From contig OZ240248.1 in the NCBI GenBank assembly GCA_965198235.1, forward strand, positions 384,001-448,000: DNA of 64,000 nt, written 5' to 3'. The translations under genes were made by a program, and so were the position numbers. The notes beneath the pieces are model-generated. The model was not told where the DNA came from. It did not search any database and saw only the letters and a program-made list of their open reading frames with translations. The DNA comes from Candidatus Poribacteria bacterium (lineage in GTDB: Bacteria > Poribacteria > WGA-4E > WGA-3G). This document shows positions 1,471-18,050 of this stretch, piece by piece; within the stretch, counting starts at the first letter, position 1, and each line of letters begins with the position of its first letter.

Positions 1471-2058
1471 TTATTGCAATAGGACAACCGCCTTTTTTAA
1501 TGCATTTGCGTCTACCTTTATTTTTGCTATTTCTGCTTCGCGTTGAACATAGGTGAGCGTATGTTCCGGACTCATCGGAGCGGCAATGTCTTGAACAATC
1601 TTATGGAGACGTTTCACATCGGCTTTCTTGATGCCGGTCTGTGCTTCAATACGGGTATGTAGCACGGCGGGGGATTCTGGTTCTTCAACGGGTGCTGCAC
1701 GTTTGGAAGGTGCTTTACTGGTTTTGGTCTTTGATTCCGCTGTGGCAGAAGTCGGTGTCTTCGCACGGCGGGTCCGTTTTCGAGATGTCCCCTGTTTGGA
1801 TGCCTGAATTTTTCCTGTCTCCAGTGATTTGACCCCACATTCCTTACACAACTTCGCTGTGATGTCAGCCAAGGTCATCGTTACAATCATTTCTGTGATT
1901 GCGCCACAGAGTTCGCATTCGTCGAGGTTTTCGATGCTTGTAAGGATCTCGGCATGTATTACGAGCATCTTCTCTTTGTCGGTTTTTGTCTGCTTCTCTT
2001 TCTGACAGAGTACGATCAATTTCTGTGCTGCTTTTTCAATTGTGTCTAAATGTCCCAT
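1471..2058 (-). CDS. hypothetical protein with two CxxC motifs and a basic low-complexity linker
   Basis: CELCG...CKECG; K/R/T/S-rich middle. ATG at 2058 preferred over GTG at 2082. Confidence 0.7.
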   Translation of the reverse strand: MGHLDTIEKAAQKLIVLCQKEKQTKTDKEKMLVIHAEILTSIENLDECELCGAITEMIVTMTLADITAKLCKECGVKSLETGKIQASKQGTSRKRTRRAKTPTSATAESKTKTSKAPSKRAAPVEEPESPAVLHTRIEAQTGIKKADVKRLHKIVQDIAAPMSPEHTLTYVQREAEIAKIKVDANALKKAVVLLQ

Positions 2059-15517: not shown

Positions 15518-16852
15518 CTACGCCAAAAAAGTGATCCCTCCTGATGCCTCTCTGTCCTGCCAGACTGAACCCGTCGGATAGATGTGCTTCTCGACAAACT
15601 CCGGATACATCTCCAGTCCCCAACCGGGGACTGTTGGCGTAACATAGGCACCATTGCGTACCTGAATTGGGTGCAGGAAAACGTCCTCTTGTAAGAAGTT
15701 GAGGTATTCAACGACCTGTGTTTCCGAATGCGCGGCGACGCAAATTTGATCCCAAATGGCGTAATGTTGAATCATGTTACACAACCCGATGCCACCACCG
15801 TGCGGGCAGACGGGGATAGCGTATTTTGCGGCCATCAAGATGACTCCGAGCACATCGTTGACCCCTCCGAGCCGCGTCGCGTCAATCTGGCAGTACTGGA
15901 TCGCTTCATTCGTGATTAACTGTTTGAAGATGACAGGCGACGGTACCTGTTCGCCTGTAGCGACTCCAATACCGTGTTTCTCTAAGGCACGTGCGATTTT
16001 CACGAAGCCGAGCACATCGTCGCGCGCTGTCGGTTCCTCAATCCATGTCGGTTTGAACTGTGCTAACTCTTCCATATAGGCGATTGCTTCATCGACACCC
16101 CATATCTGATTTGCATCCAGCATCAGAAGTGCCTCTGTGCCGATTGCCTCCCGAATGAAGGCGAGTCGTTTCTTGTCAAAGTCCAGATCCTGTCCAACCT
16201 TCATTTTGAAGCAGTCAAGCCCGGCTGCTTTCACCTGATTCACTGTCTCAATAATCTGTGCATCTGTCAGACCGAGCCATCCTGCGGTGGAATAAGCCTT
16301 GGGTCCCTGTTGGAGGAGCGTCTGCTCACGGGCTGCGCGACTGCCCCAATGTGTGTTGAGGATCTCCTCTGCTTCATCAGGTGTCAGTGCATCGCGCAGG
16401 TACCGCCAATCAATACATTGCGCAATCTTCTCTGGTGGTAGGTCAACGAGAAGTTTCCAGAGCGGTTTATCGACCAGTTTTGCCCAAGTATCCCACATCG
16501 CGTTGACAATGCTCCCGATCGCCATCCGGTTAACGCCGTCAGCAAGCCAGCGTAACTGGTGATGGTCGACAAGAAGCCTGTGGAATGCACCGGGGTCGTC
16601 AACGAAAGTGGCCATCTCCACCCCAACAACGAGTTGTGCCAGGTCTTTAACGCCGTAGGCAATCCAGTCGTTTCCGGCACCCGCGGTGAACGCCACTGAT
16701 ATACCTTGATGTCCTGTGCTTGTTTCAAGTGTCGTTAGGACTGCAGAATAATTCGGTTTTTTATGAAAGGGATCGGAACCGAGTAGTGTATCCGATGTGG
16801 GGACGCGTAAATCAACAACATCAACTTTTACGATTTTTCCTAAGTTATTCAT
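15518..16852 (-). CDS. L-fuconate dehydratase-like enolase-superfamily protein
   Basis: DLRVPTS..LGSD, AYST.GWLG, FKMKVG, DANQ.W, WIEEP, ATGE, VCPHGGG.GLC. Confidence 0.88.
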   Translation of the reverse strand: MNNLGKIVKVDVVDLRVPTSDTLLGSDPFHKKPNYSAVLTTLETSTGHQGISVAFTAGAGNDWIAYGVKDLAQLVVGVEMATFVDDPGAFHRLLVDHHQLRWLADGVNRMAIGSIVNAMWDTWAKLVDKPLWKLLVDLPPEKIAQCIDWRYLRDALTPDEAEEILNTHWGSRAAREQTLLQQGPKAYSTAGWLGLTDAQIIETVNQVKAAGLDCFKMKVGQDLDFDKKRLAFIREAIGTEALLMLDANQIWGVDEAIAYMEELAQFKPTWIEEPTARDDVLGFVKIARALEKHGIGVATGEQVPSPVIFKQLITNEAIQYCQIDATRLGGVNDVLGVILMAAKYAIPVCPHGGGIGLCNMIQHYAIWDQICVAAHSETQVVEYLNFLQEDVFLHPIQVRNGAYVTPTVPGWGLEMYPEFVEKHIYPTGSVWQDREASGGITFLA

Positions 16853-17237
16853 CAAAATTTTCGGTGTAGAAACTCCGTCTTTATAAAGTGGGGAGGAAAC
16901 ACCTCTCTCCTTTTTCTTGACAGAAAACGCCAAAATCGTTAGAATGCTCTGCGTCGTGCAGAAGGTTGTGAATTATGCGTACTGGACGCTATTGCTGAGT
17001 GGGTTTACGTAAAACGACAACACGATGACGCTAAACAACCCAGACGAGCTTTTTGAGTGTAATGGATGCGAGGCAGTAAAACACCCGATCCGAAAAAACG
17101 CACTCTGAAAAAATAGTGAGTTGCCTTCGGGCAAGCGGGCTGCTTAGTATCCCGTTGTGGAGTAGATGTAAGGCCTCACTTTGAGGCAAACTACGATGAA
17201 GCACAAGCCCCACCCTTTAGGGTGTGGGTGCTATGAC
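16853..17237 (+). mobile_element. non-autonomous IS200/IS605-family element (tnpB remnant plus omega-RNA-like right end)
   Basis: Left: TTCAT|CAAAA, GAAA at the foot of hairpin 16873-16895. Right: CAAG at the foot of hairpin 17208-17228, ending in TGAC. Decayed TnpB Zn-ribbon tail (FECNGC..KH..NA) at ~17020-17110. Confidence 0.8.
16917..16945 (+). promoter_or_regulatory. sigma70 promoter inside the mini-IS
   Basis: TTGACA-17 bp-TAGAAT. Confidence 0.65.
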
Positions 17238-17257
17238 GTTTGCTTGACTCCTTTCCT
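17120..17257 (+). ncRNA. putative TnpB omega/reRNA scaffold plus flanking guide
   Basis: GTGGAGTAGATGTAAG-GCCTCA/TGAGGC-CTACGATGAAGCAC nested stems before the right-end hairpin, typical of IS605/IS1341 3' ends; guide would be 17238-17257. Confidence 0.6.
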
Positions 17258-17489
17258 GACTGAGTATATAATAACCCAAGTTGCCATCTAACAAACTGTA
17301 AATGTTTGCGTACTATTTTTTTTGACCACACGCGGAAGTTTAAGGGATACAGATGTCGCCCCGCTGGGGCTTTAACGCGTTATAGCTCGAGTTTAAAAGG
17401 TGTACCTTCAAGATTTATGAAAAGGCATCCAAAAAAGCAATGAATATAGCATCTTTTATTCCAAGGTAGCAACTTGGATTATATAATAG

Positions 17490-18050
17490 ATGAATATGAA
17501 AATCTATACTAAATTCGGCGATTCTGGAGAGACTGCGCTTTACGGCGGAACAAGGTTAGGGAAAGATGAACCACGCATTGAGGCGATCGGCACTGTTGAC
17601 GAACTGAACGCTTATATCGGTTATGCGCAGACGCAGGTTGACGATGCTGATCTTTCCGAGCTCATGGCGCGGGTTCAGAATCACCTCTTTGATGTCGGTG
17701 CGGATTTGGCAACGCCAGCGACACATACGAAAGCTGCCGAATTCCGCATACCGGCAGATTTCACCATAGAGATGGAGACCGCAATAGATACACTATCTGC
17801 GGAGCTTCCACCACTGACAAACTTTATTCTGCCCGGTGGCTGCACCGCTGGCGCTATTTTGCATATCGCGCGCGTGGTGTGCCGTCGAAGTGAACGGTGT
17901 GTCGTGCGTCTCGCACGCGAAGCGGAGGTCAATCCTGAGATAATCCGAAGTTTGAACAGGCTTTCGGACCTCCTGTTTGTTCTCGCTCGCACGGTAAACT
18001 TCCGTGCGCAGGCTCCAGAACCGATTTGGGAGTCGCAAGCAAACTCTTAA
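17490..18050 (+). CDS. pduO: ATP:cob(I)alamin adenosyltransferase (PduO type)
   Basis: KIYTKFGDSGET, GTVDELN, FILPGG, R.V.RRSER, LNRLSD.LF.LAR. Confidence 0.92.
   Translation: MNMKIYTKFGDSGETALYGGTRLGKDEPRIEAIGTVDELNAYIGYAQTQVDDADLSELMARVQNHLFDVGADLATPATHTKAAEFRIPADFTIEMETAIDTLSAELPPLTNFILPGGCTAGAILHIARVVCRRSERCVVRLAREAEVNPEIIRSLNRLSDLLFVLARTVNFRAQAPEPIWESQANS

Follow-up and report, generated by a model that had tools for sequence, protein, structure and literature searches.

Stand-alone omega RNAs that lack both an effector and a transposase are present in genomes alongside effector-bearing loci and work in trans with compatible effectors, according to the section of PMC10691335 that treats Altae-Tran et al. 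2021. PATEs often encode omega RNAs, and these have to be used in trans by the TnpB of other elements, as set out in the available part of Meers et al. 2023 (PMC10055086). For IS608, the relevant section of PMC3201880 describes how the four bases that lie 5' of a hairpin foot recognise the cleavage site; the cleavage spacings are 19 and 10 nt, and TTAC is recognised by the guide AAAG.

Within a stretch of 64,000 nucleotides of a Candidatus Poribacteria genome (G000:C1:384001-448000), hereafter the window, we analysed an element that resembles each of these systems in part. Like IS608 and ISDra2 as presented in the corresponding part of He et al. 2011 (PMC3201880), it lies 3' of a tetra-/pentanucleotide without duplication and carries subterminal hairpins and sets of four guide bases, with spacings (20 and 9 nt) similar to theirs (19 and 10 nt); unlike them, it has neither tnpA nor tnpB, measures 385 bp and has a decayed left hairpin. 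It shares with the Geobacillus stearothermophilus IS605-family PATEs, going by the available part of PMC10055086, a minimal, gene-less build with both ends present and the same homing model, but the host lineage and the end sequences are different and the TAM here is TTCAT. An insertion bias toward ribosome-binding-site and start-codon junctions was observed in the window family and is unmentioned for the G. stearothermophilus PATEs in that part of the source. The Clostridioides difficile PATE with IStron ends is likewise ORF-less and keeps the ends of a tnpB-bearing parent, in the accessible portion of 10.1101/2023.11.20.567912; the parent there has a group I intron, whereas the window has no intron or ribozyme match on either strand. 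With the stand-alone OMEGA omega RNAs, in the portion of the literature that covers them here, the window family has in common mobilised guide-RNA scaffold loci that lack effector and transposase and occur beside effector-bearing loci. It differs from them, within the same portion, in being of the TnpB type, in having its own conserved promoter and leader, and in a scaffold 5' half that is found only in protein-less copies.

Results

A 385-bp element absent from orthologous loci

The element lies in a 637-bp intergenic gap between an enolase-family gene and a cobalamin adenosyltransferase gene (Table 1). The genome contains 35 matches to PF07282 (TnpB Zn-ribbon family) and six to PF01797 (Y1 transposase family), and is therefore rich in IS200/IS605 elements. 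We searched window positions 16200-17900 against 60 other genomes of the genus, most of which contained both flanking genes, and examined 11 orthologous loci from same-genus genomes (L083-L093) base by base. The results showed that the element was absent from all 11 loci, in which CAT, the start of the enolase-family gene as seen on the + strand, was followed directly by GTTTGCTTGACTCC. These empty loci read ...CAT/GTTTGCTTGACTCCTTT..TATATAAT..ATG, with a gene-to-gene gap of about 24 bp in 11 of 11 cases. The window reads ...TTCAT/16853-17237/GTTTGCTTGACTCCTTT, which is seamless against the empty arrangement CAT/GTTTGCTTGAC. From this comparison it follows that the element is exactly 385 bp long and caused no target duplication, in agreement with the extent and the absence of duplication claimed in the original prediction. 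TCAT, which had been expected to precede the copies, stood before all seven left ends recovered by single-sequence search and before 19 of 19 mini copies with a visible left end, 15 of which also had T at position -5. Insertion 3' of TCAT, a TGAC end and no duplication together mark an IS200/IS605 insertion of the single-strand type. Inside the element, neither a transposase nor an accessory gene was found, either by blastx against TnpB or as a match to PF07282 or PF01797 in this region of the window. These results identify 16853-17237 as a non-autonomous, protein-free, PATE-like mini element of the IS200/IS605 superfamily.

Read on the opposite strand, the CAT of TTCAT is the start codon ATG of the enolase-family gene; this codon adjoins the left end of the element, and the ribosome-binding site of the gene now lies 385 bp off. 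The AAGGAG box of this gene is the complement of CTCCTT within the presumed guide, and the insert parts the box from the ATG; despite the insert, the gene retains an intact 444-codon frame. The frame is also open upstream across the left end as far as a TTG at 16933. An N-terminal extension supplied by the element was considered on this account and rejected, because no ribosome-binding site was found at TTG 16933 and 27 open codons are not unusual. The same ortholog comparison revealed a separate, unrelated insertion at 17273-17479, with terminal inverted repeats and an 8-bp duplication of TATATAAT.

Table 1. Features of the element and its surroundings, in window coordinates
Feature	Position	Strand	Basis
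Enolase-superfamily (MR_MLE) gene, interrupted host context	15518..16852	-	Pfam MR_MLE_C 2.5e-51, ORF table, orthologous loci
Target / transposon-adjacent motif TTCAT; TCAT = left cleavage tetranucleotide	16848..16852	+	sequence, empty sites
Whole miniature element, 385 bp, no TnpA/TnpB-related ORF	16853..17237	+	empty orthologous loci; no TnpB similarity
Left end: GAAA 16869-72, degenerate subterminal hairpin 16873-16895, terminator-like hairpin + T run 16890-16915	16853..16915	+	class alignment/profile, fold
Sigma-70-type promoter TTGACA-17-TAGAAT, reading rightwards into the scaffold	16917..16945	+	11/12 positions, family conservation
Predicted transcribed leader, one conserved stem 16968-16974 / 17002-17008	16951..17048	+	alifold, family alignment
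Omega-RNA-like scaffold	17053..17237	+	alignment A1 of 22 tnpB-less copies, alifold, pair counts, covariance model R1
Scaffold H1	17055-60 / 17100-05	+	
Scaffold H2	17064-73 / 17084-91	+	
Scaffold H3	17121-25 / 17130-34	+	
Scaffold H4	17135-41 / 17149-55	+	
Scaffold H5	17156-59 / 17202-05	+	
Scaffold H6	17162-65 / 17191-94	+	
Scaffold inner hairpin	17173-17187	+	
Scaffold terminal hairpin	17207-16 / 17219-29	+	
Right end proper: CAAG 17204-07, hairpin 17208-28, TGAC 17234-37	17204..17237	+	homology stop, DNA fold
Presumed guide = native flank	17238..17257	+	adjoins CAT in 11/11 empty sites
Cobalamin adenosyltransferase gene	17490-18050	+	PF01923 2e-59

The two ends and guide-cleavage pairing

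The rightmost 105 nt of the element are homologous to DNA just 3' of intact tnpB genes of the same genome. In blastn and nhmmer searches against the genome, 17135-17237 aligned 3' of tnpB genes at three full-length loci (frames of 369, 400 and 402 aa) and at one tnpB fragment. Similarity ceased at ...GTGCYWTGAC in every tnpB-locus alignment, and the flanking sequence directly past TGAC was unlike in every family copy. A profile search detected 28 right-end-like sites in the genome. The TGAC subfamily, to which the window belongs, comprised 11 of them (three with an intact tnpB, one with a tnpB fragment and seven without tnpB), and a second group of 11 sites ended in TCAC. The right hairpin of the window element, CCCCACCC-TTTA-GGGTGTGGG (17208-17228), is sound.

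At the other side, the left-end class (16849-16915) was found at seven places in the genome by single-sequence search and at 42 by profile. It includes the left end of the T2163 tnpB element (402-aa frame), so that both end classes of the window element occur together in the T2163 element as well. The homology of the ends to tnpB-bearing elements of the same genome was borne out. The family consensus of the left hairpin has an 8-bp stem and a TTTA loop, and the window copy deviates from it by several mismatches. Two subterminal hairpins had been noted in the original prediction; the right one was confirmed, with a fold of -8.1 kcal/mol (DNA parameters) and compensatory substitutions between copies, but the left one proved degenerate, at -2.2 kcal/mol by the same parameters. 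This value was the third weakest of 21 class left ends (median -5.5), and of the two that were weaker still, one is disrupted by an insertion. The claim that both ends look TnpA-competent therefore did not hold for the left end. Because this hairpin has decayed, the fold energies suggest that the window copy is probably a poor excision substrate and hard to excise now. The left-end class also flanks two elements of about 1.2 kb that contain an opposite-strand ORF of about 355-400 aa; judged by eye, these ORFs resemble IscB/IsrB-type proteins.

In the base-to-base pairing map, the first guide base pairs with the second cleavage base. In the window element, 20 nt separate the left cleavage point from the hairpin foot that follows it, and the right cleavage point comes 9 nt 3' of its own hairpin foot. 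The motifs were located exactly where the original prediction had placed them (TCAT 16849-52, GAAA 16869-72, CAAG 17204-07, TGAC 17234-37), and the guide-cleavage rule that it had applied fits the window, GAAA going with TCAT and CAAG with TGAC. Covariation across the genome pointed the same way: the guides in front of the hairpin were CAAG in seven, CGAG in one and GTTT in three of the 11 TGAC right ends, and GAAG in 11 of 11 TCAC right ends, so that the first guide base varied together with the second cleavage base.

Family architecture, promoter and leader

Three further tnpB-less copies in the genome resemble 17049-17237, with 81-85% identity or detectable profile similarity, and the similarity among the genome copies begins sharply near 17052, the 5' edge of the scaffold. 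Two left-end variants occur among these mini copies, m2520 having a left end of a different class and m3440 having none. Whole-length copies of 383-434 bp, extending from after TCAT through TGAC, were found at unrelated places in other species of the genus, and at 20 places elsewhere the left end, promoter, scaffold and right end of the window element recur as one set. In most of 24 aligned copies, the order of parts was TTCAT, left-end hairpin, GGAGG...CCTCC hairpin with T run, promoter, leader, scaffold and TGAC.

The predicted TTGACA-17-TAGAAT promoter was present and matched at 11 of 12 positions. In the window alone such a promoter is at chance level (three sites in the region versus 1.9 ± 1.4 in shuffles), and what counts is the conservation seen in the family alignment rather than the window match. 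Of the 24 family copies, 20 had a -35/-10 pair at the corresponding position (three were not picked up, and a 21st row, L103, was spurious), and TG before the -10 box was frequent among the family promoters. The leader that follows is about 100 nt long and comes in three sequence types, all of which carry an AAGGTT motif that is also present in the 5' untranslated region of full-length tnpB elements. Its one conserved stem has moderate support, with 13 pairs and three double changes in an alifold analysis of 14 copies.

A scaffold with conserved and covarying helices

The scaffold is about 185-190 nt long, and its last 105 nt double as the right end. We aligned 22 tnpB-less copies, four from this genome and 18 from 13 others (alignment A1). 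RNAalifold on A1 gave 43 pairs, 23 of them with compensatory change; the inner hairpin, which was masked by alignment gaps, was added by hand, and 48 pairs were counted. The results showed that 97.0% of 1044 pair cells were paired (48 pairs, 22 copies, 14 genomes) and that both sides had changed in 26 of the 48 pairs, involving 95 cells. None of 500 column shuffles matched the observed values on any of five measures, and only 27-47% of cells were paired in a control with the partners slid by 1-3 columns. These alignment statistics indicate that the scaffold is under structural selection. Retention at the DNA level could apply to the terminal hairpin only and not to the six internal helices, and the pairing of the latter is therefore not explained by TnpA.

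With R1, a covariance model built from A1, the window gave a full-length match of 199.2 bits, the highest score among the four genome copies, and the claim of intact omega-RNA-like stems was thereby sustained. A match to an omega-RNA covariance model had also been expected, and no curated Rfam family provided one: Rfam 15 gave no family at the gathering score over the whole window, and only a chance U6atac match (E 2.9) at E ≤ 10 over 16600-17600. A self-splicing reading (group I intron or ribozyme), prompted by the start-codon insertions, was dropped, as there was no Rfam match on either strand. As judged from its sequence, the guide-RNA part of the window copy is intact.

Relation to tnpB loci and candidate partners

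We compared R1 with the tnpB loci. The four closest loci scored 92.9-104.1 bits and matched from about model position 89 on, and helices 1-3 (17055-17134) were skipped by R1 in these closest tnpB elements. At a more distant tnpB locus (47.9 bits), helices 1-2 of R1 overlay codons at the extreme 3' end of the gene, which encode ..HDRDINAAINILRAG..; it is plausible from this alignment that the 5' half of the scaffold descended from a tnpB 3' coding end. The overlaid HDRDINAAINILRAG stretch is not the Cys motif. The decayed Zn-ribbon tail that had been claimed inside the element was not recovered: blastx of 17040-17140 against the 35 TnpB frames of the genome gave nothing at E ≤ 10, blastx of 24 family copies against the TnpB frames of the genome gave no match at E ≤ 0.01, and DNA similarity to tnpB loci begins only at 17134-5.

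R1 matches were present in 55 of 61 genus genomes, and their scores were bimodal, with about 44 at 150 bits or more (full scaffold) versus many at about 95-115. Among the full-scaffold loci fetched at 128 bits or more, TnpB lay within 1.5 kb in 0 of 27 (tblastn, E ≤ 1e-5), and the first R1 locus of lower score (110 bits) had a full TnpB nearby. Over the loci covered by this comparison, the full scaffold 5' half appears to be the mark of a protein-less lineage.

We regard the T2163 TnpB (400 aa from ATG, G000:C1:2163468-2164667) as the best candidate for loading the mini RNA in trans. TTTTCAT stands before its element, whose flank on the TAM side thus agrees with that of the window element and whose right end is related. 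The protein contains the Pfam OrfB_IS605 and Cas12f1-like TNB domains and could be aligned at E 1.2e-40 to the solved structures of ISDra2 TnpB (8bf8/8exa); in this alignment, the catalytic columns are occupied by Asp, Glu and Asp. The catalytic residues of ISDra2 TnpB are D191/E278/D361. T2163 TnpB is accordingly predicted to be nuclease-competent. D-E-D was kept in 23 of 26 full-length TnpB frames of the genome, and the remaining three frames, which belong to a distant clade and are about 20% identical, have D-G-D. The T2163 clade (best E ≤ 1e-170) was present in 24 of 25 genomes with the mini type (best R1 match E ≤ 1e-40) compared to 22 of 36 without it (Fisher one-sided p = 0.0014), although these genomes are kin, so that the p value overstates the case, and the clade is common anyway.

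An autonomous relative with the same ends had also been anticipated. An autonomous tnpA+tnpB element, in two copies that are 99% identical, carries the hairpin CCCAATCC-TTTA-GGTTTGGG at both ends, which is of the same kind as in the window; however, none of the 42 left-end-class matches lay within 3 kb of any of the six tnpA genes of the genome. On the hairpin likeness, it is plausible that the transposase of this autonomous element could mobilise the mini element, and naming any one transposase as the mobilising enzyme is a guess.

Guide region, RNA-library contigs and proposed mechanism

The guide region holds CTCC (17250-53), the complement of the enolase-family Shine-Dalgarno sequence, and TTGACT (17244-49), the -35 box of a putative promoter (17244-17272) of the neighbouring cobalamin adenosyltransferase gene. 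As had been proposed, TTCAT followed by the guide re-creates the element's own empty site, and the genome contains no other site with at most one mismatch. For the guides of all four genome copies, no second genomic target with at most one mismatch was found, and TCAT stood beside no near match.

The element stretch was present in four metatranscriptome runs of one study, labelled sponge metagenome. Mapped on 16600-17800, the contigs covered 16600-17234 and 17208-17800 in X1, 16960-17223 in X2, 16953-17559 in X3, and 17005-17106 and 17077-17237 in X4. Two further mini copies of the genome were likewise represented by contigs in RNA libraries, as loose ends. Three of the four runs had no contig on 16600-16927, and their contigs started at 16953, 16960 and 17005, which would fit a transcription start just after the -10 box, although contigs cannot show starts and a gap in coverage is no proof of one. 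Where contigs stop at 17223-17237, they do so in the repeated right end, and such stops are probably breaks in the assembly. As contigs reveal neither the strand nor the ends nor the level of an RNA and may stem from DNA carry-over, they give a weak hint of expression.

We propose that RNA would start near 16953, from the internal promoter, and run through the scaffold into the flank, that processing would yield an omega RNA with the guide GTTTGCTTGACTCC..., and that TnpB made elsewhere would take up this mini RNA. Excision by a Y1 TnpA acting in trans would bring TTCAT and the guide-matching flank together. TnpB would then cut the empty site, and repair from a sister copy would restore the element, as in the published homing model. 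The best explanation of the locus, and one that we consider likely, is a PATE-like mini element which derives from a tnpB-only insertion sequence and supplies a guide RNA to TnpB in trans for homing. Against this explanation weighs the occurrence of helices 1-3 only in tnpB-less copies, and the compatibility of the RNA with TnpB is putative. Homing at the window copy itself may have stopped, because it needs excision and the left-end hairpin is weak.

Insertion at start codons

The left end was located in 20 copies. In eight of them, the CAT of TCAT was the ATG of an opposite-strand ORF of at least 236 codons, and in seven of these eight (7/20) the right flank also held an SD-like motif. The baseline over all 41,887 ATGA sites of the genome was 10.8% for the ORF and 2.7% for the ORF with the SD-like motif (binomial p 7e-4 and 6e-7), figures that refer to plain ORFs, treat all copies as independent events and draw their baseline from coding and non-coding sites alike.

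Discussion

An inert fossil, in which a tnpB insertion sequence was left as a remnant after gene deletion and the RNA-like part has no function, would be consistent with the decayed left-end hairpin, with the lack of an Rfam match, with genome copies that are just 81-85% alike and thus reflect no recent burst, and with RNA-library contigs that prove no transcript. Neutral decay would not, however, hold 97% of cells paired in 22 copies from 14 genomes, with both partners changed in 26 of the 48 pairs, nor would one expect of a fossil that the promoter is retained in 20 of 24 copies, that copy similarity sets in sharply near 17052 at the scaffold 5' edge, and that the window copy, at 199.2 bits, ranks top of four in the genome. 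We therefore hold the fossil to be rather improbable. A recombination chimera, with the left end and the scaffold plus right end taken from different neighbouring elements, could account for the different left-end class of m2520, for the lost left end of m3440 and for left-end and right-end matches that lie mostly at separate places. It is already disfavoured and we give it hardly any credence, since the empty sites show that both ends came as one 385-bp piece, the same full architecture recurs in 383-434 bp at 20 other places, and the T2163 tnpB element joins the same two end classes.

The position of the element at a start codon raises the question of host control. The element could act as a host-directed regulator and not as a homing guide, either as a reversible off-switch or as an antisense or read-through unit or both, with the window promoter facing the cobalamin adenosyltransferase gene and the guide region antisense to the enolase-family 5' leader; in a variant, the scaffold might serve a nuclease-dead TnpB-like repressor. 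The frequency of insertion at an opposite-strand ATG (8 of 20 copies, 7 of 20 also SD-like, against 10.8% and 2.7%) speaks for such a role, as do the displacement of the SD by 385 bp from the enolase-family ATG in the window, the absence of any predicted + strand terminator between 17237 and the next gene, and a single RNA-library contig that spans 16953-17559. On the other side, the guide is merely flank and has no other genomic match, some copies are not independent events, and the bias could mirror sites where insertion is tolerated; a nuclease-dead partner did not emerge, since the D-G-D frames, three in number, belong to the distant, about 20% identical clade. A regulator in place of a homing guide thus seems quite improbable to us, although regulation is compatible with homing. 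A wider proposal joins both aspects: the family would be a self-standing lineage of mobile guide-RNA genes, equipped with a promoter, a leader and a scaffold 5' half of its own, that has lasted throughout the genus, inserts preferentially at SD-ATG junctions of opposite-strand genes, borrows both TnpA and TnpB, and forms a reversible RNA-guided gene switch. If this were true, seamless excision would turn the gene on, and the off state would be enforced when TnpB cuts the restored site; from the sequence comparisons at hand we rate this switch as unlikely. Homing with a guide RNA supplied to TnpB in trans remains the explanation that we prefer.

The idea of a guide-RNA-only element is already published, as the available parts of PMC10691335 and PMC10055086 make clear, and the window element is a new example and not a new kind. 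The dedicated, conserved promoter and leader, the scaffold 5' half found in protein-less copies only, and the bias in insertion sites may go beyond what those parts of the two sources describe. The element is a clean natural guide-RNA-only transposon with exact empty sites, and it shows that a TnpB guide-RNA module can persist, structurally selected, without a nuclease gene. Four copies with different guides in one genome, together with candidate TnpB and TnpA proteins, offer a test bed for the interchangeability of omega RNA and TnpB in trans. Should the possible preference for start-codon junctions be borne out, it would tie these elements to host gene control.

Insertion at start-codon junctions of host genes

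Relatives of the tnpB-less, protein-free IS200/IS605 element (the mini element) were frequently found inserted exactly at the junction between the Shine-Dalgarno (SD) box and the ATG of a gene on the opposite strand. An ATG junction with an opposite-strand ORF of at least 236 codons was present in 8 of 20 family copies, against a baseline of 10.8%, and such an ORF together with an SD-like word in 7/20, against 2.7%; these counts carry no phylogenetic correction and pool coding and non-coding sites.

In the window, the enolase-family frame is unbroken despite displacement of its ribosome-binding site by 385 bp; counted from its ATG (16852), it has 444 codons. Upstream of this ATG, the frame stays open across the left end of the mini element as far as a TTG at 16933, where no ribosome-binding site was seen.

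A second insertion lies beside the mini element. Its ends are imperfect terminal inverted repeats (AACCCAAGTTGCC... / ...GGTAGCAACTTGGAT), and the sequence TATATAAT is directly duplicated (8 bp) at its borders. It is missing from all 11 orthologous loci of the genus, and portions of it recur elsewhere in the same genome and in relatives. This insertion is unrelated to the mini element. Its landing site is the cobalamin adenosyltransferase promoter, at the -10 box.

Coordinates of the features described (plain numbers, window positions; G000, genome holding the window; G005 and G009, other genomes of the genus; C, contig; L, fetched locus)
Feature	Position	Strand	Remark
Enolase-family frame including upstream open stretch	15518-16933	minus	
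SD/ATG placement in the window	16850-16852 with 17250-17255		
SD/ATG placement, right flanks and left junctions	L114, L120-L125, L129, L132, L137		
Terminator-like hairpin	16890-16915		GGGGAGGAAACACCTCTCTCC then TTTTTC; immediately 5' of the element's promoter
Leader, promoter to scaffold	16951-17048		
Second insertion	17273-17479		~207 bp; flanking repeats 17265-17272 and 17480-17487
Mini copy with altered left end	L002 about 1740-1800 = G000:C1:3441040-3441100	minus	
Two ~1.2 kb elements	G000:C1:4647853-4649100; G000:C1:4954355-4955600		mutually 73% alike; outside the window
Minis related to the ~1.2 kb elements	L009 near 1509-1566; L012 near 1501-1555		
Three TnpB frames, distant clade	G000:C1:159893-161149; 4380243-4381475; 4791539-4792771		L018, L021, L022
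Third class of R1 matches	L142 = G005:C76:32771-32967; L143 = G009:C70:14503-14699		

Terminator-like hairpin and leader

The terminator-like hairpin is kept across the family in the form GGAGG...CCTCC plus a T run, and may shield the mini element against read-through from the left. Among family copies, the leader occurs in three sequence types, each with AAGGTT followed by a stem. Full-length tnpB elements carry a related sequence as their 5' untranslated region. Among 14 copies, double changes were found in only 3 of the 13 predicted pairs of the leader.

Divergent TnpB frames and guide-RNA matches

The three distant TnpB frames are ~20% identical to T2163, the 400-aa candidate trans partner of the mini element, and a MAFFT alignment placed Gly at their catalytic Glu column. 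This Gly may be an alignment artefact; two of the three frames are the tnpB of an autonomous tnpA+tnpB element.

R1, the covariance model of the guide-RNA scaffold, also returned a third class of matches (~197 nt, ~110 bits). No TnpB was found within 1.5 kb of either locus, and the class may represent another protein-less variant.

Left ends in variants and other elements

In one mini copy (3440807-3441100), the outer left end has given way to four ~10-bp tandem repeats (TTCGGAAACC-like), which are similar to a stretch found in normal left ends, TTCGG..GAAAC. This copy still has its promoter and scaffold, as well as the inner part of its left end.

Both ~1.2 kb elements start with TCAT and the left-end class of the mini element, and contain an opposite-strand ORF of ~355-400 aa that, by eye, looks like an IscB/IsrB-type protein. 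In four shorter derivatives (~245-460 bp), both the left and the far end are preserved. One set of ends seems to be used by two kinds of guide-RNA nuclease elements.
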